A DNA stretch of 36,401 bases from Phycisphaerales bacterium. Its GTDB lineage: Bacteria > Planctomycetota > Phycisphaerae > Phycisphaerales > SM1A02. The position numbers were made by a program, and so were the translations under genes. The stretch spans positions 1 through 36,401 of the forward strand of contig VERO01000001.1 in NCBI GenBank assembly GCA_018882625.1, written 5' to 3'. Below the pieces are notes generated by a model. It was not told the origin of the DNA. It did no database searches and saw only the letters and a list, made by a program, of their open reading frames with translations. Shown here in pieces: positions 1,886 to 36,401 of the stretch. Every line of letters starts with the position of its first letter. The first letter of the stretch is position 1.

Positions 1886-1916
1886 GGCCCGACCTCGCGC
1901 TGCCGCAACTGGCCGC

Positions 1917-3731: not shown

Positions 3732-3783
3732 GGCGCGCTCGGCGGCGCCCTTGGCCGGCGCCGAACCCGCATACGCTACGCGG

Positions 3784-9779: not shown

Positions 9780-9780
9780 T

Positions 9781-10242: not shown

Positions 10243-10324
10243 AGGGTCGCGGAGTCTAGGGGCTTGCGCCGCGGACGCGGCGGACGCGAGTCAGGCTGGA
10301 TGCTGCCGCACCTAGCATCACGCC

Positions 10325-18018: not shown

Positions 18019-18025
18019 GGGACGC

Positions 18026-19402
18026 ATGATGCGTCGCGCCCCACATCTGCAGTGTGCGTACGCGGCATGCGCGCTCGCACTGCTCGCGCCTGGGACCGTC
18101 GCGTCCGCAGACTTGCCGAAGTACCTGCCGCAGCTGCAGGCCCGCGTCAGCGGCTTCGATGGATTCAACCTGCCCACGGGCAGCTCGTTCTCGAGCGGCA
18201 CGCCTGACATCGACGACCAGGGGATCGTCGCGTTCCGCCTGATCGGGGTCGGGCTCACTGGCATAGGCGGCATGTGGGTCGGCGCGAACGGCAGCGGCAG
18301 CATCGTGTACCAGGCGCCGAGCGCCGATCCCGTGATCACGGATCCCGGCATTGCCGCTGGTGCGGTCGTCTTCGACCAGTACACGCTCCCCGGCTCTCAG
18401 GGGCTTCGCCGGTACAGCATCCTCACTGGTCAGACATCCGTCGCGATCCAGCCGGGCGGTGCCATCGGCGTGACGTACTTCGGCTCGCCCCAGGTGCTCG
18501 ATGATGGGCGCATCGGATTCCGCGCAACCATCGGGTCCAGCAACTACGCGCACGTGATTCACTCGGCAGGCACCTCGACGGTGATCGTGGGCACCCCAGC
18601 TGCGCAGCCTGGCAGCCCATACAGCTTTCTCTTCACGCCTTCGTTCAACCAGGCTGGACATGTGGCAAGCAAGGTCCAGCGTGCCGCCGGCGGCAACGAG
18701 ATCAGGATCTTCCGCATCGACGGCACCTCAACGCTGATCGCGTCGGACGCCGCCGCTGCACCAGGCTCCCCCTACACGGGCTTCGACAACAGCGTCGCGC
18801 TGACGAGCACCGGCGACGTCGCCTTCATCGCGAGCCTCGGTGGCGGGGTGCGCGGAGTGTTCCTCTCCAACGGAACCGCCACCTCGCAGATTGCGCGCAC
18901 GCAGGCCGGCCAGATCAACGAGATCGAGTTCTTTGCGCCCGCAGCGAGCGACACCGGGCTCGTCGCATTCCGGGGCCGCGATGGCGCAGGCAAGCGCTCC
19001 ATATTCGTAGGCGACGGCACTGAGCTGGTGCGCGTGGTCGGCGACGGTTCGCCAATGCCGAGCGACCTTGGAGACGCCAAAGTCGGCCGACCCGACACCA
19101 GTCCCGTCTTCGGCGGCAATCCGCGCATGAACGCGCGGGGCGACCTTGTGTTCGGATGCTCGATCATGCCGCTTGGAAGTTCCTCTGGAACGTGGGGCTC
19201 CGCGGTGTACGTGCTTCGCGCCCAGGAGCCCAGACGCCCCGCCGACATCAACGGTGACGGCACGGTCAACGGGCTCGACCTCACGGCGCTGCTCGCGGCA
19301 TGGGGCGCGTGCCCGACTGCGGGCGACTGCGCGGCTGATGTGGACGGCAGCGGCACTGTGGATGGCCTTGACCTCACCGCACTGCTCGCCGACTGGGGCT
19401 GA
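18026..19402 (+). CDS. Secreted tandem-repeat (NxxGxxAF-type, propeller-like) protein with a C-terminal dockerin-like module
   Basis: Signal peptide MMRRAPHLQCAYAACALALLAPGTVASA. About seven recurrences of a x(D/N)xxGxV(A/V)F motif (DDQGIVAF, DDGRIGF, NQAGHVAS, TSTGDVAF, SDTGLVAF, NARGDLVF). The C-terminus is ADINGDGTVNGLDLTALLAAWG...DVDGSGTVDGLDLTALLADWG. Confidence 0.75.
   Translation: MMRRAPHLQCAYAACALALLAPGTVASADLPKYLPQLQARVSGFDGFNLPTGSSFSSGTPDIDDQGIVAFRLIGVGLTGIGGMWVGANGSGSIVYQAPSADPVITDPGIAAGAVVFDQYTLPGSQGLRRYSILTGQTSVAIQPGGAIGVTYFGSPQVLDDGRIGFRATIGSSNYAHVIHSAGTSTVIVGTPAAQPGSPYSFLFTPSFNQAGHVASKVQRAAGGNEIRIFRIDGTSTLIASDAAAAPGSPYTGFDNSVALTSTGDVAFIASLGGGVRGVFLSNGTATSQIARTQAGQINEIEFFAPAASDTGLVAFRGRDGAGKRSIFVGDGTELVRVVGDGSPMPSDLGDAKVGRPDTSPVFGGNPRMNARGDLVFGCSIMPLGSSSGTWGSAVYVLRAQEPRRPADINGDGTVNGLDLTALLAAWGACPTAGDCAADVDGSGTVDGLDLTALLADWG
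19241..19399 (+). other. Dockerin-like duplicated Ca-loop module (copy 1 of 4 in the window)
   Basis: ADINGDGTVNGLDLTALLAAWGACPTAGDCAADVDGSGTVDGLDLTALLADWG. These are two D-x-[ND]-G-D-G-x-[VI]-[ND]-x-x-D-L-x-x-L-L-x-x-W-G segments. Confidence 0.8.
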
Positions 19403-21847: not shown

Positions 21848-23494
21848 ATGGCAGGCGCGATCACCCAGCACGAGCTCGTCGGCGCCCTCAGGGATCCGGT
21901 CGCGCTGGGCTGCGCGCAGGGCACTCCAGTGGATGTGGTGCACACCCACGCGTCGACGGTGCTGCTGTGCGGGGACCGTGCCTGGAAGCTCAAGAAGCCC
22001 GTGCAACTCGGGTTCCTCGACTTCTCCACGCTCGAGCGCCGCCGCGCGGACTGCGATCGCGAGATCGCGCTCAACCGTCGCCTAGCTCCTGAGATCTACC
22101 TCGGCCTGAGCGCCGTGGTGCGACGCGGCGCGGCGCTGCGGATGGTGGATGCACCCGTCGCTGTCGAGGAAGCCGTCGAGTGGGCCGTCCGGATGCGCCG
22201 GATGCCTGCCGATGGCATGCTGGACCGGCTCGTGCCGCGCGGCGGAGTGACTGCGCAGCACGTGCGCGAGTTCGCCCGTCGTCTCGCGGACTTCCATGCG
22301 AGTGCAGGGCCTGCCGTTGTGGCCCAAGACCACGGATCCGTGGAGCAGCTGGCAGATCGCCTGCGCAGCAACCTTGAGCGGCTCGCGCGCGGCGCTCTGT
22401 CGGCCCGTGGCGCGAAGGGCAGAGATGGCGGCCGGGCGGGGGATGCAGACATGCCCCTTCAGCAGGAGTTCGTCGATGCGCTGCGCCAGTCGGCCGAGCG
22501 GCTACTGGTGCGGGTGGCGCCGTTGCTGCACGAGCGCCGCGCACAGGGACGCGTGCGCGATGGCCATGGCGACCTGCATGCACGCAATCTGTGCATGATC
22601 GACGGGACCATCACCGCATACGACTGCCTCGAGTTCGACGACTCGCTCCGATGCGCGGACGTCGCCGCCGATGTCGGATTTCTCGCGATGGACCTCGCGC
22701 GCCTAGGCCGCAGTGACCTGGCCCAAGAGTTCGTCGCCGAGTACGCGAGGGCTAGCGGGGACAGCGGCATCGCAGAGCCTGTGCAGCTCTTCAGCGTCCA
22801 CTATGCCATCGTGAGGGCGATGGTGGAGTCGATCCGCCTGGACCAGGCCGATATGTCGCTCACCGAGCGTCCCGCAGTCGTCCGCGCGATCCGCGAGTTC
22901 GCCATGCTTGCAGCGGGATACGCGGTCGAGCCAGCCACCGTGATCATGATGGGGCTGCCCGCGACCGGCAAGAGCACGCTTGGCCGTGCGCTGGCTGGCC
23001 ACCTTCGCGCTCGGATCATCGAGAGCGACCGCATCCGCAAGGAGCTGCACGGCATCGCGCCGACCGCGAGGGGCACCCCTGAGATGTACAGCGCCGCCGC
23101 CACGGCGCTCACGTACGCCGAGCTTGCGAACAGGGCGCAATCCGCCGCCGGCTCGGTGGTGATCGATGCGTCGCACCACGCGAGGGCTGGTCGAGCGTCG
23201 TCGGTCGCGGCAGCCGCCGGGCGCAGCGGCCCATGGCTGCTGCTCGAGGTCGACGCGGATCGCGCCACGATCGAGGCGCGCATGCAGCAGCGTGCACGGG
23301 ACGCGTCGAGTGTCTCGGATGCCACGCTGGATGTGCACGAGAGGCTCCTAGGGCGGCGCGAGGCTCCTGAGGAGGTGGATCCGCAGCACCGGCTCCGTGT
23401 GGTCAGCCGCGACGGCGACGGGTGGATCGACGACGCGTGCCAGCGGGCGCTGGCCCATTTGATGTTGTGTCGGGACTCCGATGGCGTACCTTGA
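21848..23494 (+). CDS. Bifunctional aminoglycoside phosphotransferase-like kinase / P-loop (AAA-type) kinase fusion protein
   Basis: The N-terminal half has the APH/choline-kinase catalytic loop VRDGHGDLHARNLCM and DCLEFDD. The C-terminal third has the P-loop MMGLPATGKSTLGRAL. Confidence 0.8.
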   Translation: MAGAITQHELVGALRDPVALGCAQGTPVDVVHTHASTVLLCGDRAWKLKKPVQLGFLDFSTLERRRADCDREIALNRRLAPEIYLGLSAVVRRGAALRMVDAPVAVEEAVEWAVRMRRMPADGMLDRLVPRGGVTAQHVREFARRLADFHASAGPAVVAQDHGSVEQLADRLRSNLERLARGALSARGAKGRDGGRAGDADMPLQQEFVDALRQSAERLLVRVAPLLHERRAQGRVRDGHGDLHARNLCMIDGTITAYDCLEFDDSLRCADVAADVGFLAMDLARLGRSDLAQEFVAEYARASGDSGIAEPVQLFSVHYAIVRAMVESIRLDQADMSLTERPAVVRAIREFAMLAAGYAVEPATVIMMGLPATGKSTLGRALAGHLRARIIESDRIRKELHGIAPTARGTPEMYSAAATALTYAELANRAQSAAGSVVIDASHHARAGRASSVAAAAGRSGPWLLLEVDADRATIEARMQQRARDASSVSDATLDVHERLLGRREAPEEVDPQHRLRVVSRDGDGWIDDACQRALAHLMLCRDSDGVP

Positions 23495-23498
23495 GGCC

Positions 23499-25058
23499 AT
23501 GCGTGATGCGATCGTCCCTTGGCGGATCGTGAGCAGCCTCGTCGCGGCTGCGGCATGCGGCACCGCGCTTGCGGGCAGCGTGCCCACGACCACCGTCATC
23601 GTCCACGGCTTCTCGCCGAGCGGAAAGGGCGCGTGGGTGCAGGCGACCGCGTCCGCGGTGATCGCGCGGGTTGGTGGTCAGGGCACCGTGTACCGCTACC
23701 AGGATGAGTTCGGCGCGTGGACCCGTGTGCCTGGCATCGGCAACGGGAGCGCCGACCACATCGTGCTCATCTTCAACTGGGATGCGGACTCCGGGGGTGC
23801 GGAGGAGGGTCCCAACCTTGGTTACGTGCAGGCCGCGGGCGATGCCCTGCACGCCACGATGCGCGATGCCACGTACGCGCCAGGCTCATCTGGCCCAGCC
23901 GACCTGGTCACCGGACGCGCATCGCACTTCATCGGCCACAGCCGAGGTGCCTGCCTGATCAGCGAGGCGATCCTCAGGCTTGGCGTCGCGGGTATCGCCG
24001 TGGACCAGATGACGACCCTCGACCCGCATCCGGTCAACGGCACGCTCGACGCGCGCTACAACCTCAACTGGGGCGATCCTGTGCCCCAGCGCTGGAGCAA
24101 CGTCGCGTGGGCCGACAACTACTGGCGCGCAGACGGCGGTGGTCTCCTCAACGGCCTCGACTTCGACGGCATGCCGCTCGACAACGTGCTCAACGTGCAG
24201 CTCTCCGAGTCCCTGCTGAACTGCTGTGCGTACTCGTTCTCGCACTCCGATGTGCACCTGTGGTACTTCGGGACCATCAGCCTTGCGACGGGCGCGAGCA
24301 ACGGCGAGGAGACGGTCACGGCGCAGATGCGCAGCAGCTGGTGGCCTGAGGGCGCCGCGAACGTCGGATTCGCGCGAAGCGCGATCGGTGGCGCTGCTCG
24401 GCCCACGATCTCGCCGGGCATTGCGCCAAATCCGGCGCTTGCCCCCATCCTCCACAACGGCAACTTCGTTGGCGGCACGCGCGCGGGCTGGGCCATGCAC
24501 GGCGGATCCGGCGCCACGCTGCAGAGCGAATCGGGCAACTGGTTCGCCCGGCTCTCGTCAGCGCGGCCGCAGCTGACGCACAACCGCTCGTACCTGCCCG
24601 CGCCGCGCGACCCGTCGCGGCCGGTGCAGCTCTCGATGGCCGTGCGGCGCAGCGGCGCTGCCGGGTCAGGCGATGCGCTGCGTGTCGAGATCCAGGGAGC
24701 TGGTGACGAGACGGCAACGCCGGTACCTGGCGCATCGTGGCCGGTGTCCTCGCTGGGCACCTCCTTCGCAGGCGTCACCGTGCCCATCCCGCCCGAGCTG
24801 TGCGGCATGACTGCACGTCTCCACGTCGTGCTTGACGGCGGAGGCAATGGCATCGCATCCAATGTGGACATCGACGACATCGTGATCACCGTGCCGCCGC
24901 GCGCAGCGGACCTCAATGGAGACCTTCGGGTTGATGGCACGGACCTCGGTGCGCTGCTCGCGGCGTGGGGCCCATGCTCGGGCTGCCCGGCGGACATCAA
25001 CGGTGACGGGTCCGTCAACGCCATCGATCTCGCGGCGCTGCTTGCCGCATTGGGCTGA
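23499..25058 (+). CDS. Secreted alpha/beta hydrolase (lipase/esterase-like) with a beta-sandwich domain and a C-terminal dockerin-like module
   Basis: Signal peptide MRDAIVPWRIVSSLVAAAACGTALAGS. The block VIVHGF and the nucleophile elbow GHSRG are present. The C-terminus is ADLNGDLRVDGTDLGALLAAWGPCSGCPADINGDGSVNAIDLAALLAALG. I preferred the ATG at 23499 over 23481 because it avoids overlap and fits a signal peptide. Confidence 0.7.
   Translation: MRDAIVPWRIVSSLVAAAACGTALAGSVPTTTVIVHGFSPSGKGAWVQATASAVIARVGGQGTVYRYQDEFGAWTRVPGIGNGSADHIVLIFNWDADSGGAEEGPNLGYVQAAGDALHATMRDATYAPGSSGPADLVTGRASHFIGHSRGACLISEAILRLGVAGIAVDQMTTLDPHPVNGTLDARYNLNWGDPVPQRWSNVAWADNYWRADGGGLLNGLDFDGMPLDNVLNVQLSESLLNCCAYSFSHSDVHLWYFGTISLATGASNGEETVTAQMRSSWWPEGAANVGFARSAIGGAARPTISPGIAPNPALAPILHNGNFVGGTRAGWAMHGGSGATLQSESGNWFARLSSARPQLTHNRSYLPAPRDPSRPVQLSMAVRRSGAAGSGDALRVEIQGAGDETATPVPGASWPVSSLGTSFAGVTVPIPPELCGMTARLHVVLDGGGNGIASNVDIDDIVITVPPRAADLNGDLRVDGTDLGALLAAWGPCSGCPADINGDGSVNAIDLAALLAALG
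24906..25055 (+). other. Dockerin-like duplicated module (copy 2 of 4)
   Basis: ADLNGDLRVDGTDLGALLAAWGPCSGCPADINGDGSVNAIDLAALLAALG. Confidence 0.8.
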
Positions 25059-26886: not shown

Positions 26887-27079
26887 GCTGAGCGTCTCGT
26901 GCAGTTGGTGCGTCGCGCGCTGGCTCAATCGGGGGAGAGCGTAGATCACGATGGGCACATGCGACTCGCGGCATGCTGCCTTGTGCCCATTTCCACGTGT
27001 ACCGCGGAGCATGGCCTCTTTACACTGATGCATGCACGGTGGCCGGCAGCAGCCGTCCGCCGAGCGATGGAATGCCCGC

Positions 27080-28933
27080 ATGAACCGCTCCGAGCCGTGG
27101 CCTGCACGCACACTGATTGCCGCGCTCGTCTCCCTCGCGTGCCTGTGGATGGATCGGGCGGGGCTCGCTACGGCTGACGCCCCTCCACCCGAAGTGCGAT
27201 TTGAGGTCGGCAACGTGTGGGAGGGCGGGTACGGGGCGAACATCCGCATCTGGAATCGAGGCCCTGCGCCCATCGTGGGATGGACACTCACGTGGGACCG
27301 TGGCCCGACCATCGCGAGCCTCTGGAACGGCACTCACTCCGTCGACGGCATCCATCACACGGTGCAGAATGCCGGGTGGAACGCGACCATCGCAGCTGGC
27401 GCCACAGTCACTCTCGGCTTCACCGGCGCGGGCACGATGACTGACAACGTCACGGACTGCCGGCTCAATGGCGCCCCCTGCGAAGTGACCTACGACCTTC
27501 CCCCAGGCTGGTCTGGCGGCGGCAGTGGCGACGGATCGGGTGGAGGCGGTGCACCGCAGGTCGAGCCGCGCGGCCCGTTCTGGTTCCCCGAGGACATCGA
27601 CGGCAACCGCACCGTCAATGGCGCAGACCTCGCGCAGGTGCTTGGCGCATGGGGCAGTTCAGGCACACCAGGTCCCGCGTTCGCGGCCGACGTCAATCGC
27701 GACGGTCGCGTGGATGCCGTGGATCTCGCCGGCATCCTTGCTGCGTGGGGACCGCTCCCGCCAGAGCGGGTCATCGTGGGCTACTGGATCGAGTGGGGCA
27801 TCTACGGCCGCAACTACCAGCCCGCGGACACTCCATTCGAGAAGATGACGCACCTGCACTATGCGTTCGCGAAGATCAACCCCGACTTCACGATTGCACC
27901 GTTCGACACCTATGCGGCGCTCGACCGCTTCTATCCGGGCGACTCCTGGAGCATGCCCTTCCGCGGCACGTACCGGCAGATCAACCAGGTGCTGAAGGCG
28001 CAGCACCCGCACCTGCGCACGCTCATCTCAGTTGGCGGGTGGACGCTGTCGGGTCCGTTCAGCGACGCCGCGCTCACGCCTGAGCGTCGCGCAACCTTCG
28101 CGCAGTCGTGCGTCGACTTCATCCGCACCTACGGGTTCGACGGCGTCGACATCGACTGGGAGTACCCGGTCTGCTGCGGCCTCGAGTCCAACACGTACCG
28201 CCCGGAGGACCGCGCCAACTTCACGCTGCTGCTGGCGGCAGTGCGCGAGCGGCTCGACGCCGCGGGTGCGGAGGACGGCAGGCACTACCTGCTCGCGATC
28301 GCTGCGCCTGCCGGCATCGACAAGATCTCCAACCAGGAGCCGCACCTCTACCACCCATCGCTCGACTACATGACCGTGATGACCTACGACCTCTTTGGCG
28401 CGTGGGACCTCACGATGACAGGCCACCAGGCAGGGGTGTCGCGCAACCCTGCGCAGGGCAACTCGTTCACGGCGGTGAACTACAACATCGAGACGGCGAT
28501 CGGCGCATACCTTGACGCAGGCGTCCCCGCGCACAAGATCGTGCCTGGAGTGCCCTTCTACGGGCGCGCATGGCGTGGCGTGCCGCCCACGAACCACGGT
28601 CTCTTTCAGCCGGCGACCGGCGTCCCGCCCGGCACGTGGGACGACTGGGCATCGGGCGCCACAGGGGTGAACGACTTCACGCAGATCCGCGCGTTGCTGC
28701 AGGGCGGCGACTATGTCAGGCACTGGGATCCTGTGGCGAAGGCTGCATGGGCGTACTCGCCCACGGCACATGGCGGCCACTTCATCAGCTACGACGACGT
28801 CGAATCGATCGCGGTCAAGGGCGAGCTGGTGCGCCAGCGTGGCCTTGGCGGCTTCATGTTCTGGGAAGTCACGGGCGACCGTGAGGAGATCCTTCTGGAT
28901 GCCCTTGTCGACGAGCTCGGAGGCCGCCGGTGA
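27080..28933 (+). CDS. Secreted GH18 chitinase with N-terminal CBM2 and an internal dockerin-like module
   Basis: Signal peptide MNRSEPWPARTLIAALVSLACLW. CBM2-like region 27191-27487. GH18 catalytic motif FDGVDIDWEYP (Glu codon 28160-28162), plus SVGGW, MTYD and GGFMFWE. Confidence 0.92.
   Translation: MNRSEPWPARTLIAALVSLACLWMDRAGLATADAPPPEVRFEVGNVWEGGYGANIRIWNRGPAPIVGWTLTWDRGPTIASLWNGTHSVDGIHHTVQNAGWNATIAAGATVTLGFTGAGTMTDNVTDCRLNGAPCEVTYDLPPGWSGGGSGDGSGGGGAPQVEPRGPFWFPEDIDGNRTVNGADLAQVLGAWGSSGTPGPAFAADVNRDGRVDAVDLAGILAAWGPLPPERVIVGYWIEWGIYGRNYQPADTPFEKMTHLHYAFAKINPDFTIAPFDTYAALDRFYPGDSWSMPFRGTYRQINQVLKAQHPHLRTLISVGGWTLSGPFSDAALTPERRATFAQSCVDFIRTYGFDGVDIDWEYPVCCGLESNTYRPEDRANFTLLLAAVRERLDAAGAEDGRHYLLAIAAPAGIDKISNQEPHLYHPSLDYMTVMTYDLFGAWDLTMTGHQAGVSRNPAQGNSFTAVNYNIETAIGAYLDAGVPAHKIVPGVPFYGRAWRGVPPTNHGLFQPATGVPPGTWDDWASGATGVNDFTQIRALLQGGDYVRHWDPVAKAAWAYSPTAHGGHFISYDDVESIAVKGELVRQRGLGGFMFWEVTGDREEILLDALVDELGGRR
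27191..27487 (+). other. CBM2-like carbohydrate-binding module (chitinase)
   Basis: EVRFEVGNVWEGGYGANIRIWNRGPAPIVGWTLTW...WNATIAAGATVTLGF...CRLNGAPCEV, with conserved Trp residues and a Cys pair near the end. Confidence 0.75.
27590..27754 (+). other. Dockerin-like duplicated module (copy 3 of 4, internal position)
   Basis: EDIDGNRTVNGADLAQVLGAWGSSGTPGPAFAADVNRDGRVDAVDLAGILAAWGP. It lies between the CBM2 and the GH18 domain. Confidence 0.8.
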
Positions 28934-31227
28934 GTGCCCGTGCTTCATGTGCGCTGGCCCCAGGGCCAGCCGCCATCGCGGTCGTGGCTCGTGCCGCATT
29001 GGCCGCGATCGGGGCATCGCTCTGCGGTGCATCCGCAGCGCCGGCCGCCGCAGCTACGCAGTCGTCCGTCGCCATCGAGTTTGCGCTCTCGAGCGCGTGG
29101 GACGGCGGCTTCGTCACCAACGTCCGCTTGCGCAATGATGGCACCACGACGGTGAACGGATGGACCCTTGCCTTCACGTGGTCTCCGCAGATCGTCTCGC
29201 ACTGGAACGCCATCCTCACCACCACGCCGACGGGCACGAGCTACCGGCAGGAGCTCACGCCGCTCGAGTGGAACTCCATGATCGCGCCGGGCGCGACGGT
29301 GACGGTGGGGTTCCAGGCCAACGGCACCTTCACGCCGACGGTCACGGCGTGCTCGGTCAACGGTGTGCCGGTCGTGCCCACGTACGTCAACAGCCCAGGC
29401 GGTGGCGGGGGCACGCCCATCGTCGAGATCGCCGGAGTGCCGGCGGCCGCTGACGCGTTCCGCATTCCAGGTGGCATGACGGCGCGCGCCCTTGCGCTCT
29501 CAAGCGGCGCCGATGTGAACGGCTGGAGCGTGCGCACCAACAATCCGCACGTGGTCCAGGTGTCAGTGGGCGCTGCTGCCGGTGGCGGCCACGAGCTGCG
29601 GCTCAGCGCGCTCGCGCCAGGCTTCGCGTCGGTCACGGTCGCCGACACCGGGTCCGGCGCATCACGCATCGTGGGCGTTGCGGTCGAGAGGCCCGATGCA
29701 TCGATGCCCGGGTTCCCTGCGTACCTCGCGCTTGGCAGCGTCAGCGAGGACATCGCCGCGCATCTCGACTACTTCCGCGGCTACGGGCCGGGTGCAGCCG
29801 GCGGAAGCCGCTTCGTCGACTTCCGCTACATCTACATCAACGGCGGCCCGGTGTCAGGATGGCGCACATGGACTGCAGTGCCCGGCGACCGTGCGCGCCG
29901 GTACGTGCGAGAGAGCAAGCGCCTGGGGATGATCCCGTGCTTTGTCTTCTACAACGTGCCTGACTCGGGGGAGAGCCTGCCGACCAACATTGCGCACCTC
30001 CATGACCCGCAGTACATGGCAGGCTACTGGCGCGACCTTGACCTCTTCTGCGATGTGGTGCGCGAGGAGACGGCGGACGGCTGGCCCGTGGCCGTGATCC
30101 TCGAGCCCGACTGCCTCGGGTACTTCGCGCAGGCGGGGTACTCGCCCGATACGCCGGCGATCGCCCCGCGCGTCGACATGGCGTACTCGACCGCAGGCTT
30201 CGACAGCAGTCCGATCCTCGCCGCAGGGGATCCGCGGTTCCCGAACTCCATCCCCGGACTCGTGCGCGCGATCAACCACATCCTGCGCCGCGACATCCCG
30301 TCGGTGCGCTTCGGGTGGCAGCTCAACCTGTGGGCCTCTCCGCCTGGCGGCTTCGCGGGAACGCCCATCCCGGGCAACGGCATTTGCCGGATGACGGACA
30401 TCTACGGCATTGCGGACGGTCGAATGCGCATCAGGGCAGAGGCGCGCGCGATCGCCGAGTGGTACGTCGCAGCGGGGGTGCTCGCTTCGAACGCAGACTT
30501 CGTCTCGATCGACAAGTACGGGCTTGACGCTGTGGGCGCGAACCCCGCGTGCGCCGCCGATCCTGCTGCCGGCCCATGGTTCTTCAACGCCGACCACTGG
30601 CACAACTACCTCGCGGTCGTGCGAAGCCTGCGTGAGGCCACCGATAGGCCCGTGGTGCTGTGGCAGATCCCGGTAGGACGGGTGAACTCGACCACCGATG
30701 TCGATCCTGCGGCAGGCGCTCCCTTCGCCCCGCTCGACAACTCGATCCAGCGCTACGAGGACAGCGCCACGACCTTCTTCTTCGGCGACACGTTTGACCC
30801 GGGCACGGCGACGCGGCGCGCGTGGTTCGCGACCAATGCTGGGCAGGATCCGAAGGTGAGCACGAGCGGCGCGCTCGTCACGTGGGGCGAGCACCTGAGC
30901 GATGCGCGGGATGTGGGCGCGATCGCGCTGCTGTGCGGTGCAGGCGTGGGCGCGAGCACCACGAACATCCCGCCCTCAAGCGGCATCTCGCAAGGACCGA
31001 CTGACGGCGGCTTCTGGATGAGGCGCGCAGAGCTCTACTACCTCGATCCGATCCCGCTCGATCCGCAGCCACCGGCGCCCGCCGACCTGAACGGCGATGG
31101 CCGCATCAACGGGCTCGACCTCGCGATGCTGCTCGCGGCGTGGGGAACGCCCGGCGCCGACATCGACGGCAACGGCACCTCAGACGGCGTAGACCTCGCG
31201 ATGGCGCTCGCGAGCTGGACGGGGTGA
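28930..31227 (+). CDS. Secreted CBM2-containing protein with an Ig-like linker, an uncharacterised (GH6-like?) catalytic core and a C-terminal dockerin-like module
   Basis: GTG at 28930 overlaps the chitinase stop (GTGA). The N-terminus is signal-like. CBM2-like region 29062-29373. The core contains AVILEPDCLG (30091-30120) and FVFYNVPDSGE (29941-29973), which recall the GH6 signature regions. The C-terminus is ADLNGDGRINGLDLAMLLAAWGTPGADIDGNGTSDGVDLAMALASWTG. Confidence 0.75.
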   Translation: MSARASCALAPGPAAIAVVARAALAAIGASLCGASAAPAAAATQSSVAIEFALSSAWDGGFVTNVRLRNDGTTTVNGWTLAFTWSPQIVSHWNAILTTTPTGTSYRQELTPLEWNSMIAPGATVTVGFQANGTFTPTVTACSVNGVPVVPTYVNSPGGGGGTPIVEIAGVPAAADAFRIPGGMTARALALSSGADVNGWSVRTNNPHVVQVSVGAAAGGGHELRLSALAPGFASVTVADTGSGASRIVGVAVERPDASMPGFPAYLALGSVSEDIAAHLDYFRGYGPGAAGGSRFVDFRYIYINGGPVSGWRTWTAVPGDRARRYVRESKRLGMIPCFVFYNVPDSGESLPTNIAHLHDPQYMAGYWRDLDLFCDVVREETADGWPVAVILEPDCLGYFAQAGYSPDTPAIAPRVDMAYSTAGFDSSPILAAGDPRFPNSIPGLVRAINHILRRDIPSVRFGWQLNLWASPPGGFAGTPIPGNGICRMTDIYGIADGRMRIRAEARAIAEWYVAAGVLASNADFVSIDKYGLDAVGANPACAADPAAGPWFFNADHWHNYLAVVRSLREATDRPVVLWQIPVGRVNSTTDVDPAAGAPFAPLDNSIQRYEDSATTFFFGDTFDPGTATRRAWFATNAGQDPKVSTSGALVTWGEHLSDARDVGAIALLCGAGVGASTTNIPPSSGISQGPTDGGFWMRRAELYYLDPIPLDPQPPAPADLNGDGRINGLDLAMLLAAWGTPGADIDGNGTSDGVDLAMALASWTG
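29062..29373 (+). other. CBM2-like carbohydrate-binding module (second protein)
   Basis: SSVAIEFALSSAWDGGFVTNVRLRNDGTTTVNGWTLAFTW...WNSMIAPGATVTVGF...ACSVNGVPV. Confidence 0.7.
31081..31224 (+). other. Dockerin-like duplicated module (copy 4 of 4)
   Basis: ADLNGDGRINGLDLAMLLAAWGTPGADIDGNGTSDGVDLAMALASWTG. Confidence 0.8.
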
Positions 31228-31290: not shown

Positions 31291-31364
31291 TGGGCGATAC
31301 TGGATTCGAACCAGTGACCCCACGCGTGTGATGCGTGTGCTCTAGCCAGCTGAGCTAATCGCCC
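31291..31364 (-). tRNA. tRNA-Val: tRNA-Val (anticodon CAC)
   Basis: The reverse complement folds as a cloverleaf: acceptor GGGCGAT/ATCGCCC, D-arm GCTC-AGCTGGCTA-GAGC, anticodon arm CACGC-AT[CAC]AC-GCGTG, variable loop GGGTC, T-arm ACTGG-TTCGAAT-CCAGT, discriminator A. 74 nt; CCA is not encoded. Confidence 0.93.
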
Positions 31365-31621
31365 GCGAAGTCGGGAAGTTACCGCAAGTCGGTCTCCGGA
31401 TGGGTCGATTCGGGGGCTTGTCCTGTTCCCGATCCCTACTTATCGGTACCGACAATGGCACATTTCTCTCAAGTAACCCACGACTTCTGCTGCCTAGATT
31501 CAAAACTACTTCCGTGTCGCGAGCACGGGATTATGTTGAACAAGCTGCCTCCGTCCGTTTGCCGGAGGGGCAAGCCGGTCGTAGCGCCGGCGGTTTCGTT
31601 CCCTTGAGCCGGACTCCAGAG

Positions 31622-34600
31622 ATGTTCAGGACACCGCGCCAGCACCATCCATCAGGTAGTGAGTCGTCCTGGTGGGCGTGGTCGGTTCGGCGCCTCGCGG
31701 TAGGGCTCTTGGCGATCTCCGGTGCGTTCTCTGCATCGAGCGCTCCGTCAAGGGCCGACATCATCTTTGCAACCGGCAAGTCCACCGGGGACCTGATCCG
31801 CTACGACTCACAGGATCCTGTCGGCACGAGGACAGTGCTCGCGAGCGGAACGCTCAGCGCACCGTCTGCGCTCGCAATCGGGCCCGACGGCAACCTTTAC
31901 ATCGGGAATGCCGGCAACGGCACGACCATCGCTCCGTCGATCGTGCGACTTAGCGTGGGAACCGGCACGTTCACGACGGTCCACACATTCAGTTCGTACG
32001 ACATCGTTCCAGGCAGCATGGTGTTCCAGGGATCGGCACTACTTGTGGGTCGCGATCCCGACAGTGGCAATGCCGGTCCGGTTGTACGGTTGACGAACGT
32101 CACTGGTGGTACGGTTACCGTCAGCAACTACACGTCGGGCGGCAACCTCGTGAGTAGCCCAGGGCTCGCCATCGCGCCCGACGGGCGCCTCTACGTCAGT
32201 GATCAGACTTGGAACCTTCTCAGTTTGGTCGCAAGTGGCCCAGTCAAGCGGTTTGATGCTTCGGGCGCTTTCGTGGACGAGGTCATCGCCGACGGTGCCT
32301 CCGGACTTCAGGGTCCGGCTGGGATGGTGATCGGCGGCAACCAGCTGTTCACGGCGAGCTACATGAACGGCGGTGTACTTGCGACCAGCCTCGTCTCCGG
32401 GGCCACAACGAGCTTTGCCTCGGCGGGTGCGCCGTTTGAGGCGCGGGCACTCACGCTGCTCGCGGACGGCAGCCTGCTGGCCGGCTCCGGTGTCGATGGG
32501 TCGATTCGCCGCTTCGGCTCGGGTGGCGCGCTCCTTGAGACCTTCGCGACTGACATCGGGCCGATTGGCGGACTGGCTGCAGTCGTGCCGAATGGGCCAT
32601 CGGAATGCCCGAACGAGCCGGGCGCCGCGAGCATCTTCGTCGGAGTTGACTCGGACGGCGATGACTACTGCTCGACCGCGTCGGGCGGAACCGACTGTGA
32701 TGATGGGGCGAACGACGTATACCCCGGGGCTCCAGAGCTGTGCGGCAACGTGGGATTCAACAACGACTGCGACAACGCAGGAGCAAGTGATGACCAGACC
32801 CCATTTGTGCTGCATCGGGACGTGGACGGCGACGGGTACGGAGACGTCAATGTGTTCCATCCGCAGTTCGTCATTGATTGCGCGTCGAACTGGCCCGGTT
32901 ACGTCAACGACCGCAATGACTGCAACGACAACGACCGCTACGTCAACCCGAGTGCAGCAGAGATCTGCGACGGCATCGACAACAACTGCTCCAACAGCAT
33001 CGACGAGAACCAGTCGAACATCGACTACTACGCCGACACGGACGATGACGGCTTCGGGGCCGGCGCACGGGTAGGCAGCTTCTGCAGCGAGGCGGCGGCG
33101 CGGGTGCGCCTCAGCAACCCGACCGGCAACTACTCGACCACAAGCGATGACTGCGGTGCGAGCGACTCAGCGGTCTACCCGGGCGCGCCCGAGAACTGCG
33201 CGAACCTCGGCACGAACAACGACTGCGACGGCTACAACGACGAGACTGAGGTGATCGCGGCGGGGGCCGGCGACCTCCAGACCTTCTATGCGGATGCAGA
33301 CGGGGACGGCTACGGAAGCCAGTCGGATACCACGGGCTCCCCGTTCTGCAGCCGGCCCTCGGGCCGGTCAGCGACCAACAACGATTGCAATGACACCTAC
33401 GGCGCTGGCGCGCCCATTAACCCGGGCGCCGCCGAGACCTGCAACGGGATCGACGACGACTGCGATGGCACGGCTGACGACGGCCTGCCGTCGTCCGACT
33501 ACTACGTGGACGGTGATGACGATGGGTACGGCACGGGCACCTCGCTGGGCTCGTACTGCAGCGAGGCCGCCGCTCGGGTGCGCCTTGGCAATCCATCAGG
33601 CAACTATTCGACCCGCTCCACCGATTGCGCGGATGGGGATGCGGCTCGCAACCCGAGCGCCGCCGAGACTTGCAACGGCATCGACGACGACTGCGACAGC
33701 TCGCCTGATGACGGTCTTCCGTCGTCTGCCTACTACGTGGACGGTGATGACGACGGCTACGGCACGGGCACCTCGCTGGGCTCGTACTGCAGCGAGGCCG
33801 CCGCCCGGGTGCGCCTGGGCAATCCATCGGGCAACTACTCGACGGCAAGCACCGACTGTGACGACGCGAGCGCAGCGGCCCGGCCCGGCCTTCCCGAGAT
33901 CTGCGCCGACTACGGCACCGACAACAACTGCGATGGCGACCGCTACGACTACGACAACACGGCGCCGGACCTGATCCGGTTCCACCAGGACCTCGACGGC
34001 GACGGGTACGGCGTTGCCGGCGGATTCTCAGTTGAGGCGTGCGAGACTCCGGAGCCGGCCAACCGCTGGGCGACCCGCACCGGCGACTGCAACGACTCCT
34101 ACGCCTACATCAGCCCGCTCGGCGCCGAGGTCTGCGACAGCTACAGCACGGCGCGCGACGAGGACTGCGACGGATACGCAGACGACCTAGATACGGCCGG
34201 TGGCGCCTCGGGCAAGGTGGACTACTTCACCGATACCGACGGCGACGGCTACGGCACCGGCAGCGCGCAGTCGCGATGCGACCAGCCGGCCAGTACATCT
34301 GCGTTTGCGGGTGACTGCAACGACTCCTACGCCTACATCAGCCCGGTCGGCACCGAGGTGTGCGACAGCTACAGCACGGCGCGCGACGAGGACTGCGACG
34401 GCTACGCCGATGACCTCGATGCGCAGGCCAGCTCGATCGGCAACCGCTCCACGTGGTACCGCGATTCTGACAGCGACGGCTACGGCGCGCTCAACGTGAC
34501 GGCCGAGCGCTGCGATGCCGGGACGGGCTCGGACGGCTACTCGTACATCGCCAACAGCACTGACTGCGACGACACGAACGCCGCGCGCGATCCGGGCAAC

Positions 34601-36401
34601 ACCGAGATCTGCGACGGCTCCAACCTGGACGAGGACTGCGACGGGTATGCGGACGACCTCGACACGGTCGGCGGCGCGTCCGGCAAGGTGACCTACTACG
34701 TCGATGGCGATAGCGATGGCTACGGCGCGGGAGCAGGCACGGACTACTGCGACCCGCCTGTCAACACCTCGACGATCGCCGGCGATTGCAACGACTCTTA
34801 CGCCTACATCAGCCCGGTCGGCACCGAGGTGTGCGACAGCTACGGCACGGCGCGCGACGAGGACTGCGACGGGTACGCGGACGACGCGGACCCGCAGGCC
34901 AGCTCGATCGGGAACCGCTCCACGTGGTACCGCGACTCGGACAACGACGGCTACGGCACTGCATCGGTGACGGACCTCCGCTGCGACGCAGGCACCGGCT
35001 CAGACGGCTACTCGTACATTGCCAACAGCGCGGACTGCGATGACACCACCGCCACCCGCGACCCTGGCAACGAGGAGGTCTGCGATGGCCTCGACGTGGA
35101 CGAGGACTGCGACGGGTATGCCGACGACGCCGACCCGCAGGCCAGCTCGATCGGGAACCGCTCGACGTGGTACCGCGACTCGGACAACGACGGCTACGGC
35201 GTGCTCGGCGTTACGGCGCAGCGCTGCGACGCGGGCACCGGCAGCGACGGCTACTCGTACATCGCCAACAGCACGGACTGCGACGACACGACCGCCACCC
35301 GCGACCCTGGCAACGCTGAGGTCTGCGACAGCTCCAACCTCGACGAGGACTGCGACGGGTACGCGGACGACCTCGACGTGGGCGGCGCGTCAGGCAAGGT
35401 GCCCTACTACACCGACATCGATGGCGACGGCTATGGCGTCACGACAAGCGTGGTGGGCACGTTCTGCGACGGCGGGGCAAGCCGCTCTGCCTTGGCCGGC
35501 GACTGCAACGACGCGTACACGTACATCAGCCCCGCGGGCACCGAGGTGTGCGACAGCTACAGCCCTGCGCGTGACGAGGACTGCGACGGTCTCTCTGACA
35601 ACGCCGACCCCTCGGCCCTCGACTCAGGCAAGAGCAACTTCTACCTCGACGGCGACCGCGATGGCTACGGAGCCGGCAACGCCGAGCGCTTCTGCGACCT
35701 GCCCGCCAAGTACTCATCCAACCCCGATGACTGCAACGATACGAACGCCGGCATCAGCCCAGGCGACGCGGAGATCACGGCGGACGGCATTGATCAGAAC
35801 TGCGATGGCTCCGAGATCTGCTTCGAGGATCTCGACAGCGACGGCTACCGCACCGGCATCACCCGCGTGTCCGTCGACTCCGACTGCGACGACCTGTTGG
35901 AGGCCCTTGACTCCGATCCCGGCGGCGACTGCGATGACGCATACTCGTACATCAGCCCGGCGGGTGCCGAGGCATGCGATGCCTACACGCCCGCGCGCGA
36001 CGAGGACTGCGACAACCTCACCGACGACGCGGATCTGGGCGGCGCGAGCGGCAAGGTGACCTACTTCGCCGACTCCGACTCCTTCGACTCGCTGCGCCCC
36101 GGACAGTCGGTGGTGGACACCTTCACCTACACGATCCGCGACTCGTTCGGCGCGCTCAGCACGGCGACGGTGAGTGTCACGGTGACTGGCGCCAACGAGG
36201 GCCTCACCATCATCGGCACGCGCCGTGGCGACCTCAACCTCAACGGCACCGAGGGCAACGACGTCATCTACGGCCGCCAGGGTGGCGACGTGGTCGATGG
36301 CCGCGGCGGCGCCGACCGCATCTTTGGCGGCCAGGGCCATGACAAGCTCTATGGCGGCGCCGGCAATGACGAGGTGCAGGGCGGCAACGGCCGCGATACG
36401 C
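31622..36401 (+). CDS. Giant secreted repeat protein (3' partial): signal peptide, NHL-like beta-propeller, about 15 Cys-rich DxDxDGYG / MopE-type 'putative metal-binding' modules, VCBS-like domain, RTX repeats
   Basis: Manual translation with codon starts at 31622, 31625 and so on shows no stop up to the window end, which is more than 1,590 codons. The N-terminus is MFRTPRQHHPSGSESSWWAWSVRRLAVGLLAISGAFSASSAPSRA. Propeller-like repeats include LSAPSALAIGPDGNLYIGN and VSSPGLAIAPDGRLYVSD. The repeated unit is D.D.DGYG...C...DC(D/N)D....(Y/I).P...E.CD....D.DCDG. The end reads GNDVIYGRQGGDVVDGRGGADRIFGGQGHDKLYGGAGNDEVQGGNGRDT. The frame is absent from the supplied track because it has no in-window stop. 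An in-frame ATG at 31400 is a less likely start because it lies in a low-GC leader. Confidence 0.85.
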   Translation, partial: MFRTPRQHHPSGSESSWWAWSVRRLAVGLLAISGAFSASSAPSRADIIFATGKSTGDLIRYDSQDPVGTRTVLASGTLSAPSALAIGPDGNLYIGNAGNGTTIAPSIVRLSVGTGTFTTVHTFSSYDIVPGSMVFQGSALLVGRDPDSGNAGPVVRLTNVTGGTVTVSNYTSGGNLVSSPGLAIAPDGRLYVSDQTWNLLSLVASGPVKRFDASGAFVDEVIADGASGLQGPAGMVIGGNQLFTASYMNGGVLATSLVSGATTSFASAGAPFEARALTLLADGSLLAGSGVDGSIRRFGSGGALLETFATDIGPIGGLAAVVPNGPSECPNEPGAASIFVGVDSDGDDYCSTASGGTDCDDGANDVYPGAPELCGNVGFNNDCDNAGASDDQTPFVLHRDVDGDGYGDVNVFHPQFVIDCASNWPGYVNDRNDCNDNDRYVNPSAAEICDGIDNNCSNSIDENQSNIDYYADTDDDGFGAGARVGSFCSEAAARVRLSNPTGNYSTTSDDCGASDSAVYPGAPENCANLGTNNDCDGYNDETEVIAAGAGDLQTFYADADGDGYGSQSDTTGSPFCSRPSGRSATNNDCNDTYGAGAPINPGAAETCNGIDDDCDGTADDGLPSSDYYVDGDDDGYGTGTSLGSYCSEAAARVRLGNPSGNYSTRSTDCADGDAARNPSAAETCNGIDDDCDSSPDDGLPSSAYYVDGDDDGYGTGTSLGSYCSEAAARVRLGNPSGNYSTASTDCDDASAAARPGLPEICADYGTDNNCDGDRYDYDNTAPDLIRFHQDLDGDGYGVAGGFSVEACETPEPANRWATRTGDCNDSYAYISPLGAEVCDSYSTARDEDCDGYADDLDTAGGASGKVDYFTDTDGDGYGTGSAQSRCDQPASTSAFAGDCNDSYAYISPVGTEVCDSYSTARDEDCDGYADDLDAQASSIGNRSTWYRDSDSDGYGALNVTAERCDAGTGSDGYSYIANSTDCDDTNAARDPGNTEICDGSNLDEDCDGYADDLDTVGGASGKVTYYVDGDSDGYGAGAGTDYCDPPVNTSTIAGDCNDSYAYISPVGTEVCDSYGTARDEDCDGYADDADPQASSIGNRSTWYRDSDNDGYGTASVTDLRCDAGTGSDGYSYIANSADCDDTTATRDPGNEEVCDGLDVDEDCDGYADDADPQASSIGNRSTWYRDSDNDGYGVLGVTAQRCDAGTGSDGYSYIANSTDCDDTTATRDPGNAEVCDSSNLDEDCDGYADDLDVGGASGKVPYYTDIDGDGYGVTTSVVGTFCDGGASRSALAGDCNDAYTYISPAGTEVCDSYSPARDEDCDGLSDNADPSALDSGKSNFYLDGDRDGYGAGNAERFCDLPAKYSSNPDDCNDTNAGISPGDAEITADGIDQNCDGSEICFEDLDSDGYRTGITRVSVDSDCDDLLEALDSDPGGDCDDAYSYISPAGAEACDAYTPARDEDCDNLTDDADLGGASGKVTYFADSDSFDSLRPGQSVVDTFTYTIRDSFGALSTATVSVTVTGANEGLTIIGTRRGDLNLNGTEGNDVIYGRQGGDVVDGRGGADRIFGGQGHDKLYGGAGNDEVQGGNGRDT
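33422..33883 (+). repeat. Two tandem 231-bp (77-codon) near-identical coding repeats inside the giant gene
   Basis: Units 33422-33652 and 33653-33883 both encode P(G/S)AAETCNGIDDDCD..DDGLPSS.YYVDGDDDGYGTGTSLGSYCSEAAARVRLGNPSGNYST. A diverged partial copy (SFCSEAAARVRLSNPTGNYST) lies at about 33075-33140. Confidence 0.85.
34160..35575 (+). repeat. Array of two interleaved coding repeat types: B of 228-231 bp and A of 243 bp, in the order B-A-B-A-A-B
   Basis: B units are at 34160-34387, 34631-34858 and 35345-35575 (..GGASGKV.Y..D.DGDGYG...DCNDSYAYISPVGTEVCDSY.TARD). A units are at 34388-34630, 34859-35101 and 35102-35344 (EDCDGYADD.D.QASSIGNRSTWYRDSD.DGYG...RCDAGTGSDGYSYIANS.DCDDT...DPGN.E.CD). 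Long runs of identical nucleotides occur between copies. Confidence 0.85.
36245..36401 (+). other. RTX (hemolysin-type Ca-binding) nonapeptide repeats at the window edge
   Basis: There are consecutive GGxGxDxUx-type units: GTEGNDVIY, GRQGGDVVD, GRGGADRIF, GGQGHDKLY, GGAGNDEVQ and GGNGRDT. Confidence 0.8.

Follow-up and report, generated by a model that had tools for sequence, protein, structure and literature searches.

A truncated planctomycete gene for a very large exported protein combines a PVC-type propeller, a MopE-type module array and RTX repeats, possibly as a stalked binder

The end of the Phycisphaerales contig VERO01000001.1 raises the question of whether the long stretch that stays open in one frame there is a gene and, if so, what kind of protein it encodes. 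In order to answer it, we analysed the window, that is, the whole stretch of 36,401 nucleotides. Translation of the + strand over 31622..36401 gave 1593 codons without a stop up to the window end, as a previous sequence-only reading had claimed, and this was indeed the longest frame in the window, with runners-up of 1012 and 982 aa. Its GC3 was 0.83 and no other frame in the region had a coding-like composition. The ORF track showed only off-frame ORFs at this place (32373..33074, 33288..33974 and 35019..36059), again as described. Since the listing omits frames running off the source, the absence of the big frame was due to this rule and not to biology, which bears out the suspicion that the lack of a stop inside the window was responsible. 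A public protein collection already contained the gene as the partial protein P0001, 1667 aa long and starting at ATG 31400. Its contig has a length of 36401, as has the window, which thus spans the entire contig. The 74 extra codons of that call had a GC3 of 0.51, indicating that ATG 31622 is the better start. The contig stops within the RTX repeats, in the sixth nonapeptide, and the true C-terminus lies beyond its end. Protein, genome-collection and metagenome scans found no overlapping or orthologous sequence for the missing 3′ part: exact look-ups gave no other contig with P0001 or the GH18 neighbour, and when the neighbouring CBM2-dockerin gene was used to scan metagenomes, its relatives were at only 34-40% and a homologue of the big gene accompanied none of them. 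The frame is part of a genuine gene that is cut short by the contig end and encodes a very large exported planctomycete protein, with the following features:

31622..36401, + strand: truncated coding sequence, 1593 stop-free codons, running off the contig end
31622..31756, + strand: predicted Sec-type signal peptide, aa 1-45 (hydropathy, -3/-1 rule)
31757..32587, + strand: six-bladed beta-propeller head, aa 46-322 (homology, AF2, Foldseek)
32588..32641, + strand: linker PNGPSECPNEPGAASIFV, aa 323-340 (position of the homologues' PEP-CTERM tail in the alignment)
32642..36034, + strand: 15 Cys/Asp-rich MopE-type modules, aa 341-1471 (PF11617)
33419..35371, + strand: recent tandem duplication zone within the array (Tandem Repeats Finder)
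36044..36223, + strand: single VCBS / bacterial Ig-like domain, aa 1475-1534 (TIGR01965)
36245..36400, + strand: RTX nonapeptide beta-roll repeats, aa 1542-1593 (PF00353, regex count)

An assembly artefact that mis-joined head, array and tail, or a decaying pseudogene, could also produce an unusual frame at a contig end. The position of this end in RTX repeats, the failure to find an orthologue with the same architecture and a change in GC3 from 0.71-0.80 over aa 1-450 to 0.84-0.93 beyond would be compatible with such an origin. However, the GC3 step lies two modules into the array, off the head/array junction, the stop-free run covers all 1593 codons and Ka/Ks between modules is below 1. In addition, the longest exact internal repeat was 47 nt and, as none reached 55 nt, k-mers of the usual sizes leave a single assembly path through the array. 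The PVC affinity of the head also agrees with the Phycisphaerales affinity of the acyl-CoA dehydrogenase encoded on the contig. We consequently regard an artefact or a dead gene as highly improbable.

The N-terminal region had the n/h/c organisation of a Sec-type signal peptide, with a basic n-region (RR 23-24), the hydrophobic core LAVGLLAISGAF and, following the -3/-1 rule, a likely cleavage site at SRA|DI, where the precursor would be processed. In 41 homologues, the signal peptides aligned with this region and the mature ends begin ADTVY, in agreement with the Sec-like signal initially proposed. AF2 placed a low-confidence helix at 22-38 and the propeller from 47 onwards. The propeller core was modelled with a pLDDT of ~96 and a pTM of 0.81, and the top Foldseek matches were all six-bladed propellers (nidogen 1npe, E 2.6e-11; Kelch; LRP YWTD) with target-normalised TM values of up to 0.82. 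Thus, the ~300-aa NHL-like propeller of the sequence-only reading was right with respect to the fold, a six-bladed NHL/YWTD-like propeller of ~280 aa. Pfam NHL (PF01436) reached 18.4 bits (E 0.0022), under its cut-off of 20 bits. Several close propeller homologues have precomputed PF01436 or PF08450 matches.

Far from being an orphan, the propeller together with its signal was 55-61% identical to stand-alone proteins of ~330 aa from Planctomycetota, Verrucomicrobiota and Kiritimatiellia (80-90% of the 348-aa query, E to 5e-99). Nearly all close relatives of the head came from the PVC group (Planctomycetota–Verrucomicrobiota), and this taxonomic range agrees with that of the contig. The alignment of 42 sequences of the family contained 53 invariant columns, all of which are kept in the head, indicating that the head is constrained in the same way as the stand-alone surface proteins. 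By homology, the head is a member of this conserved PVC family of stand-alone PEP-CTERM propellers. The match with them covers signal and propeller. They close with a PEP-CTERM tail composed of VPEP, a hydrophobic helix and an Arg cluster, whereas in this protein no PEP-CTERM was detectable after the propeller and the chain runs on for over 1,250 residues. Among 21 cluster representatives of the family at E<1e-30, it was the only one longer than 753 aa, and the MopE motif was absent from the four longer propeller relatives examined. The linker at the tail position had an AF2 pLDDT below 50. Its VVP[NGPSECPN]EPGAASIFVG stretch aligns with the homologues' VPEP tail and was considered as a PEP-CTERM relic; this idea was dropped because the HMM was silent, PF07589 matching neither the whole protein at E<=1 nor the isolated linker with or without the 8-aa insert.

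The largest part of the protein is the array. PF11617 scored 246.3 bits (E 1.4e-74; gathering threshold 27 bits) over 15 separate stretches, in accordance with the estimate of about 15 MopE-family modules. The modules are about 60-86 aa long (~77 aa) and share the pattern [YF][YF]xDxDxDGYG ... C ... DC[ND]D...P...E.C...D[ED][DN]CDG..DD. A loop precedes 14 of the 15 motifs, 13 times as an exact DxDxDG[YF]G and once as DLDSDGYR. All 61 Cys of the protein lie within aa 329-1463, four per module. The count in the proposed pairing of a loop with a 4-Cys unit was therefore correct but its layout was not: three Cys belong to the PF11617 part, while the fourth follows the DGYG loop and precedes the motif. 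Because 61 is an odd number, a perfect two-disulfide scheme throughout is excluded. Asp accounts for 18% of the array. Ka/Ks between paralogous modules ranged from 0.27 to 0.55, indicating that purifying selection acts on them. Within the duplication zone, Tandem Repeats Finder gave periods of 231, 243 and 471 nt with matches of 81-90%, and the module alignment revealed two alternating sub-types.

Structure prediction, one of the checks suggested for the protein, worked for the propeller core but not for the modules: an AF2 model of two of them, built with the 12 module pairs within the gene as alignment, had a pLDDT of 49 and was unusable. The solved structure matched by the module profile was that of MopE* (2vov_A), at residues 12-45 (E 6e-4), which are absent from the crystal; a phmmer search of PDB sequences with the whole protein gave no match to MopE 2vov at E<=1. 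[quoted passage not shown] Acyloxyacyl hydrolase (E 0.05) and SusG (E 0.27) were set aside as insignificant structure matches of the module. With their Asp-rich Ca loops and disulfides, the modules resemble thrombospondin type 3 repeats by analogy only, and the Pfam scan reported neither PF02412 nor the bacterial PF18884 at E<=1. Ca2+ is bound near-identically by Dx[DN]xDG in at least 12 unrelated families (PMC3123361).

The Pfam name Cu-binding_MopE refers to MopE, which with CorA represents the copper-binding surface proteins of methanotrophs. MopE* has a single PF11617 motif, N-terminal and with a DRDGDG loop ahead, and this protein has no similarity to the beta-sandwich core of MopE/CorA or to its His/His/kynurenine Cu(I) site. 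The latter is formed by His132, His203 and kynurenine130, derived from Trp130 (PMC3423442). As the motif (12-45) lies outside this site, the PF11617 name gives no copper inference, and matches to it are an annotation trap that should not be taken as copper binding.

A broader version of metal binding is that the array itself is the functional part and binds Ca2+, Cu2+ or other metals with high capacity and low affinity, serving sequestration, buffering or mineral nucleation, and that the propeller only targets it. With 14 DxDxDG loops and 205 of its about 1,140 residues being Asp, the array would suit this function, and Pfam titles PF11617 a putative metal-binding motif. MopE* without its N-terminal 24 residues, which overlap the motif start, lost retention on a Cu(II) column, and CaCl2 stabilised MopE* (PMC3423442). 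Nevertheless, in the same protein EPR does not support cysteine coordination of Cu(II) and the high-affinity Cu(I) site is outside the motif (PMC3423442), the module alignment has no conserved His or Met in the motif, and no metal-transport or metal-resistance genes were present near the big gene on the contig stretch scanned. The lectins and other binding domains carried by related arrays are a better fit to a scaffold. Altogether, this possibility seems improbable to us, and we find slightly harder to believe its extension, in which the MopE-type module is an unrecognised, widespread extracellular cation-binding unit, the array is the working part and the PVC propeller docks it onto a specific surface. 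If this were true, the planctomycete would have on its surface at least 14 DxDxDG sites and ~200 carboxylates that capture or nucleate Ca2+, Cu2+ or rare-earth ions.

Downstream of the array, TIGR01965 (VCBS) matched once with 23.4 bits (cut-off 15.5), and Big_9 reached 21 bits, under its cut-off of 23.6. PF00353 (HemolysinCabind) followed with 41.8 bits (E 1e-10; gathering threshold 23). Five complete nonapeptides occupy aa 1542-1586 and the sixth is cut by the contig end; this part matched the PDB sequences of the CyaA RTX domain (1.3e-11) and the Pseudomonas lipase beta-roll (6e-10). The order of a VCBS-like segment and RTX nonapeptides had thus been recognised correctly. The label 'RTX protein' is justified for the repeat type but not for a classic type 1 secretion substrate, which the N-terminal Sec-like signal contradicts. 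In the rival view of a classic RTX adhesin or toxin, type 1 secretion would export the protein with its C-terminus leading, and the missing C-terminal part would contain the secretion signal. Its giant and repetitive nature, the nonapeptides on the C-terminal side with a VCBS/Ig-like domain ahead and two ABC exporter genes at 2..4865 would fit. However, the exporter genes are ~27 kb away and look like a heterodimeric pair, the 20 upstream neighbour ORFs scanned did not include one for an HlyD-type membrane-fusion protein, and the N-terminal signal is conserved with Sec-exported stand-alone homologues. A disulfide-rich rod with 61 Cys also suits periplasmic oxidative folding after Sec export.

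The comparison with known RTX adhesins pointed in the same direction. LapA, MpIBP, FrhA and AhLap are, like this protein, giant and built of long tandem repeats and separate ligand-binding domains (PMC12077191). Their repeats are thought to be Ca2+-stiffened and the RTX beta-roll lies near the C-terminus (PMC12077191; PMC7493085; PMC5550230), and the holding of a binding domain off the cell by Ca-stiffened tandem repeats is established for them (PMC7493085; PMC12077191). In contrast to the N-terminal retention domain, the Ig-like beta-sandwich extenders, the ligand-binding domains near the C-terminus and the linked type 1 secretion genes of these adhesins (PMC12077191), the protein studied here begins with a Sec-like signal followed by the propeller, has Cys-rich PF11617 modules and a single VCBS/Big_9-like domain in place of tandem Ig-like extenders, and no type 1 secretion operon was seen on the upstream side of the contig. 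A classic RTX adhesin or toxin is therefore an improbable identity for it.

The closest counterparts of the array were giant PF11617-array proteins related to MopE, mostly annotated in Myxococcota MAGs, which have the same module pattern (30-40% identity over the array, E down to 1e-291) and 13-35 motifs compared with 15 here. Like this protein, they join the array to a separate binding-type domain, which at one end of the relatives can be a C-type lectin, a lamin-tail domain or a set of FG-GAP repeats. In the three examined, the extra domain was C-terminal, whereas the binding-type propeller is N-terminal here, and their partners differ from the N-terminal PVC-type six-bladed propeller and the C-terminal VCBS and RTX parts. 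Among the 120 best relatives none had NHL, and PF00353 was found in this protein only. A literature search gave no paper on PF11617-array giant proteins, and the same domain order was not found in two very large protein collections. To this extent the combination is undescribed, as had been suggested, but MopE arrays with variable binding domains are commonplace. The architecture is a fresh shuffle of known building blocks rather than a system of a novel type; giant surface proteins of bacteria are, as a rule, unique in how their domains are shuffled, and no long-standing question is opened by this one.

We propose, with a probability of about one half, that the gene product is a calcium- and disulfide-stiffened stalk that presents a ligand-binding propeller and is exported by the Sec route to the cell surface or the extracellular space. 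The N-terminal six-bladed propeller would be the ligand-binding head, and the short membrane anchor of its relatives would have been swapped for a rod of ~1,130 residues made of the 15 modules, with two disulfides and one DxDxDG calcium site probably locking each of them. Because of this locking, the rod would become stiff only after leaving the cytoplasm. The VCBS/Ig-like domain and the RTX beta-roll would probably form a calcium-triggered folding or attachment unit, and the true C-terminus beyond the contig end may carry a sorting or anchoring signal. The ligand- or protein-binding nature of nidogen, Kelch and LRP YWTD propellers supports a binding head, and the junction of related arrays to assorted binding domains suggests that the array is a general scaffold for such domains. 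We also counted in favour of the stalked binder the neighbouring genes for secreted polymer-binding or -degrading proteins, with CBM2, GH18 chitinase and dockerin-type repeats. Counted against it were the following points: the head-array order is atypical, as the non-MopE domain of the three relatives is C-terminal; the odd Cys number does not fit modules with two disulfides each throughout; the C-terminus is missing; and the two-module AF2 model was unusable, with the motif disordered in the only solved protein bearing it. If the proposal is right, the gene would be a clean example of a long-reach surface protein that arose when a repeat rod took the place of a membrane anchor.

Alternatively, the protein could be a structural component of the envelope or of a biofilm matrix, cross-linked through its Cys by intermolecular disulfides together with calcium bridges and devoid of a specific ligand. 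Cystine-containing proteins, among them the YTV proteins, are reportedly abundant in planctomycete envelopes, and the very high Cys and Asp contents, the at least one Cys left unpaired by the total of 61 and the recent module amplification would agree with such a role. Pfam and TIGR scans gave, however, no match to a YTV or S-layer family, and the identity of the head to its relatives and its invariant positions imply a specific function. The lack of a close orthologue in the other sampled genomes would also be unexpected for a core envelope component. We consider this structural role unlikely.

Regarding the host, the acyl-CoA dehydrogenase of the contig was 84-85% identical to Phycisphaerales MAG proteins and the propeller relatives were almost all from the PVC group, at odds with the myxobacterial setting implied at first. 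The MopE-type array, mostly annotated in Myxococcota, is here found in a planctomycete, pointing to a module that crosses phylum lines. Attention is thereby drawn to two abundant and uncharacterised building blocks, namely the PF11617 module and the PVC propeller family, the latter 55-61% identical across phyla. A genomic island at tRNA-Val was considered and rejected, as the minus-strand tRNA has the gene on its 5′ side and an integrase was not seen. At two loci of the head family (L013 and L016), long ORFs overlapping the head match had no Pfam matches and are probably spurious frames. The only recurring neighbour of the family was a DUF1559/prepilin-like gene, present at 5 of the 18 loci.

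The forward-strand frame at 31622..36401 contained 1593 codons without a stop, in agreement with the sequence-only reading, which had described an uninterrupted frame of more than 1,590 codons reaching the last base of the window. That reading had also explained its omission from the ORF track by the want of an in-window stop, and rightly so: the gene is missing because the listing rule leaves out frames that run off the sequence end, and the ORFs listed for the region are only short, off-frame ones (32373..33074, 33288..33974 and 35019..36059). The frame is the longest of the window (the next encode 1012 and 982 aa) and the sole coding-like one in the region, with a GC3 of 0.83, similar to that of neighbouring genes. 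A partial product (P0001, 1667 aa) was already present in a public protein collection and its contig, 36,401 nt long, corresponds exactly to the window; therefore, the contig ends inside the gene and the 3′ end is not obtainable from this assembly. P0001 starts at ATG 31400, 36 nt from a tRNA-Val gene. We took the start to be ATG 31622, because the 74 codons at 31400..31621 had a GC3 of 0.51 and the aligned homologues begin at this position. Given this GC3 and the terminator-like hairpins at 31510-31530 and 31574-31591, the extension is probably an untranslated leader. Counted from the Met at 31622, the protein is organized as follows:

aa 1-45, + strand: signal, with a basic stretch, then the hydrophobic core LAVGLLAISGAF, then SRA|DI
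aa 46-322, + strand: head, a six-bladed beta-propeller (AlphaFold2 and structure matches)
aa 341-1471, + strand: array of 15 PF11617 (MopE-type) stretches (Pfam, 246 bits, cut-off 27)
aa 1475-1534, + strand: Ig-like domain (VCBS TIGR01965, 23.4 bits, cut-off 15.5)
aa 1542-1593, + strand: RTX, five complete nonapeptides and a sixth cut by the contig end

The signal region aligned with the signal peptides of 41 homologues and fits a Sec signal, which would be cleaved at the SRA|DI junction. An NHL-like propeller had been proposed for the head, and its AlphaFold2 model, built on a 42-sequence alignment, was indeed all-beta and six-bladed (core pLDDT about 96, pTM 0.81), with Pfam NHL scoring slightly below threshold (18.4 bits, cut-off 20). 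The best PDB structural matches were six-bladed propellers throughout, at 12-18% identity, including nidogen (1npe; E 2.6e-11, TM 0.82 on target), Kelch domains and the YWTD domains of LRP2/LRP6. A search with aa 1-348 matched 194 proteins, the best 120 of which had 317-395 aa, 50-61% identity and 79-93% query coverage; several carried the annotation of a PEP-CTERM sorting-domain protein from Planctomycetota, Pirellulales or Chthoniobacterales. At their C-termini the homologues have VPEP, then a hydrophobic helix and an Arg cluster. All 53 invariant columns of the family alignment were retained in the window protein. Relatives at 48-59% identity, retrieved from a one-genome-per-species collection that lacks the window's own source genome, came almost entirely from the Planctomycetota–Verrucomicrobiota group (PVC; Pirellulales, Planctomycetaceae, Kuenenia, Phycisphaerales, Akkermansiaceae, Chthoniobacter and Kiritimatiellia). 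The head is thus a member of a known but unstudied PVC propeller family. None of the 80 retrieved head-family loci encoded a MopE array. When 1.84 billion representatives were searched exhaustively with HMMER, 21 cluster representatives matched the head with E < 1e-30, of which only the window protein exceeded 753 aa; among them, the four longer ones that were examined contained DUF4369-like or Big_1/cadherin segments and lacked the MopE motif.

Between head and array, aa 321-341 (32582..32644; VVPNGPSECPNEPGAASIFVG) aligned with the PEP-CTERM tail (VPEP and hydrophobic stretch) of the homologues and looked like a VPEP split by an 8-residue insert bearing the first Cys. The PEP-CTERM HMM gave no match there, and a PEP-CTERM relic was dropped as unproven. 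Of 18 loci from PVC genomes, 5 had a co-oriented DUF1559 (SBP_bac_10) gene directly downstream of the stand-alone PEP-CTERM propeller gene; its product carries a prepilin methylation motif at the N-terminus. This recurrent gene pair was found at these PVC loci:

L002:3857-4867
L005:8946-9956
L015:3538-4551
L017:8963-9967
L019:4259-5299

The array contained the roughly 15 modules that had been anticipated; of their DxDxDG[YF]G loops, 13 were exact and one was degenerate. Aligned modules gave the consensus [YF][YF]xDxDxDGYG-(8-12)-C-(6-25)-DC[ND]D-(5-8)-P-(3)-E-x-C-(4-8)-D[ED][DN]CDG-x-x-DD. The earlier pairing of a Ca-loop with a 4-Cys unit held for the module, which has four Cys, and not for its PF11617 part, which has three. 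Asp made up 18% of the array, and all 61 Cys of the protein lay between aa 329 and 1463. Tandem repeats at 33419..35371 (periods of 231, 243 and 471 nt, 81-90% matches) and the alternation of two module sub-types indicate that recent duplications of single modules and of module pairs enlarged the array. Ka/Ks values of 0.27-0.55 between copies indicate purifying selection. A two-module AlphaFold2 model was unusable (pLDDT 49).

These data also bear on whether the gene is a mis-assembly or a pseudogene. The contig ends in repeats, and GC3 steps from 0.71-0.80 over aa 1-450 (31622..32970) to 0.84-0.93 thereafter (32971..36401), neighbouring genes having 0.80-0.93. Against such an artefact, the step falls inside the array, after the signal, the propeller and the first two modules, and away from the head/array junction; the frame is intact, Ka/Ks is below 1 and the PVC affinity of the head fits the contig. 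The longest exact repeat within the array was 47 nt and none reached 55 nt, so the assembled path is unambiguous at usual k-mer lengths. We consider an artefact very improbable.

The sequence-only reading had likened the modules to the 'putative metal-binding motif' family named after MopE; the family match stood, and it carries no inference of copper binding. The whole protein gave no match to MopE in a PDB sequence search, and a 14-module profile matched only residues 12-45 of MopE*, the crystallised form (2vov_A; E 6e-4). This lies outside the Cu(I) site of MopE, formed by His132, His203 and kynurenine130 (PMC3423442), and copper binding is therefore not transferable. The PF11617 motif is without a solved structure. 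Among 8000 candidates scored with the whole protein, 676 matches were significant; the best (29-40% identity, mostly 50-78% query coverage) aligned in the array and, where named, were "MopE-related" or "putative metal-binding motif-containing" proteins, 7 of the 12 with organism names being from Myxococcota or Myxococcales. Their other domains included C-type lectin, FG-GAP, beta-helix, lamin-tail, reprolysin-like peptidase, RCC1 and T9SS tails. Among the 120 best, PF00353 occurred in the window protein only and NHL in none. Three relatives examined had 13, 16 and 35 motifs and a lectin, LTD or FG-GAP domain at the C-terminal end. By its array the protein falls among the PF11617-array proteins, a class that is large and uncharacterised; a literature search for MopE-related arrays found no paper. 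The Asp and DxDxDG content could suit a cation sponge, with the array as metal binder, as could the weak Cu(II) results obtained on the N-terminus of MopE: a MopE* degradation product without the first 24 residues lost Cu(II)-column binding, and CaCl2 stabilises MopE* (PMC3423442). This is improbable, since the motif lacks conserved His and Met, EPR evidence speaks against Cys coordination of Cu(II) in MopE* (PMC3423442) and relatives use their arrays in a scaffold-like manner.

Downstream of the array, the expected VCBS-like segment and RTX nonapeptides were both recovered, with Pfam Big_9 slightly below threshold on the Ig-like domain. The RTX region matched PF00353 (E 1e-10) and, among PDB sequences, the CyaA RTX domain (1.3e-11) and the Pseudomonas lipase beta-roll (6e-10). 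VCBS plus RTX on the C-terminal side would suit a classic type-1-secreted RTX adhesin or toxin. This reading is improbable in view of the Sec signal and the Cys-rich extender, and no type 1 secretion operon was seen across the 31 kb upstream.

Neither the proteins retrieved by a word-indexed search (5.8 billion clustered proteins) nor the top matches of the exhaustive search (1.84 billion representatives) included one with the order signal, propeller, MopE array, VCBS and RTX, a combination that the sequence-only reading had not recognised as a described family; unique domain shuffles are normal for giant surface proteins. The protein belongs to the PF11617-array proteins, to the RTX-repeat proteins at the repeat level only and to the PVC propeller family by its head only. 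It falls outside the copper proteins of the MopE/CorA family, outside the PEP-CTERM proteins as regards the equivalent position and, so far as three defining features could be judged, outside the type-1-secreted RTX adhesins. We favour, with a probability of about 0.5, a stalked binder. The protein would be exported by Sec and fold in an oxidising, calcium-containing compartment, where the 15 modules would line up as a stiff, extended rod. Each module probably has two disulfides, next to a Dx[DN]xDG site, a motif that, in the account of PMC3123361, binds Ca2+ near-identically in at least twelve families. The conserved six-bladed propeller would sit at one end of the rod, and the VCBS domain and RTX beta-roll would form the other. 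The modelled propeller most likely binds a ligand, because its closest folds are protein- and ligand-binding propellers and other members of its family are presented at the cell surface through PEP-CTERM anchors. The proposed logic parallels that of RTX adhesins, whose binding domains are held away from the cell by Ca2+-stiffened tandem repeats (PMC7493085, PMC5550230, PMC12077191), although parts and polarity differ. The odd Cys count and the composition would also agree with a cross-linked envelope or matrix protein, an unlikely reading but the least so of the alternatives; it fits poorly with a conserved head and with the lack of orthologues.

The myxobacterial setting implied earlier was not upheld: the acyl-CoA dehydrogenase was 84-85% identical to proteins of Phycisphaerales metagenome-assembled genomes and all its named top matches were Phycisphaerae, so the contig is planctomycetal. 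Upstream features were:

31291..31364, - strand: tRNA-Val(CAC), in the 394 bp that separate the CBM2-dockerin gene from the big gene; the latter sits on the 5′ side of the tRNA
28930..31227: CBM2, ~550-aa unassigned core and dockerin
27032..28933: CBM2, dockerin and GH18 chitinase, overlapping the 28930..31227 gene by 4 nt
11829..13394: type III PKS
10325..11053: methyltransferase
9781..10290, - strand: CoxG/polyketide-cyclase-like protein
8535..9779: acyl-CoA dehydrogenase
4653..7691, + strand, and 2..4865, - strand: two overlapping ABC exporter genes (at 2..4865) and the M60 peptidase gene next to them

Dockerin type I repeats occurred in four secreted-looking proteins (17984..19402, 23481..25058, 27032..28933 and 28930..31227), and cohesin was not detected among the ORFs scanned. 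No Pfam family matched the ~500 residues in the middle of the CBM2-dockerin protein (aa ~200-720). Relatives of this core at 34-40% were present on 24 JGI, TARA and other metagenome contigs (L081-L104), which indicates that the core is conserved, as yet uncharacterised, and probably acts on carbohydrates. The 20 ORFs scanned included no HlyD-type protein, exosortase or metal-handling gene. Farther upstream lay an M60 peptidase, the type III PKS cluster (8535..13394), possibly a small polyketide cluster, and the ABC exporter pair. The second exporter (982 aa) has a ~400-aa N-terminal extension without Pfam match, and the pair adjoins the M60 enhancin-like peptidase of 1012 aa.
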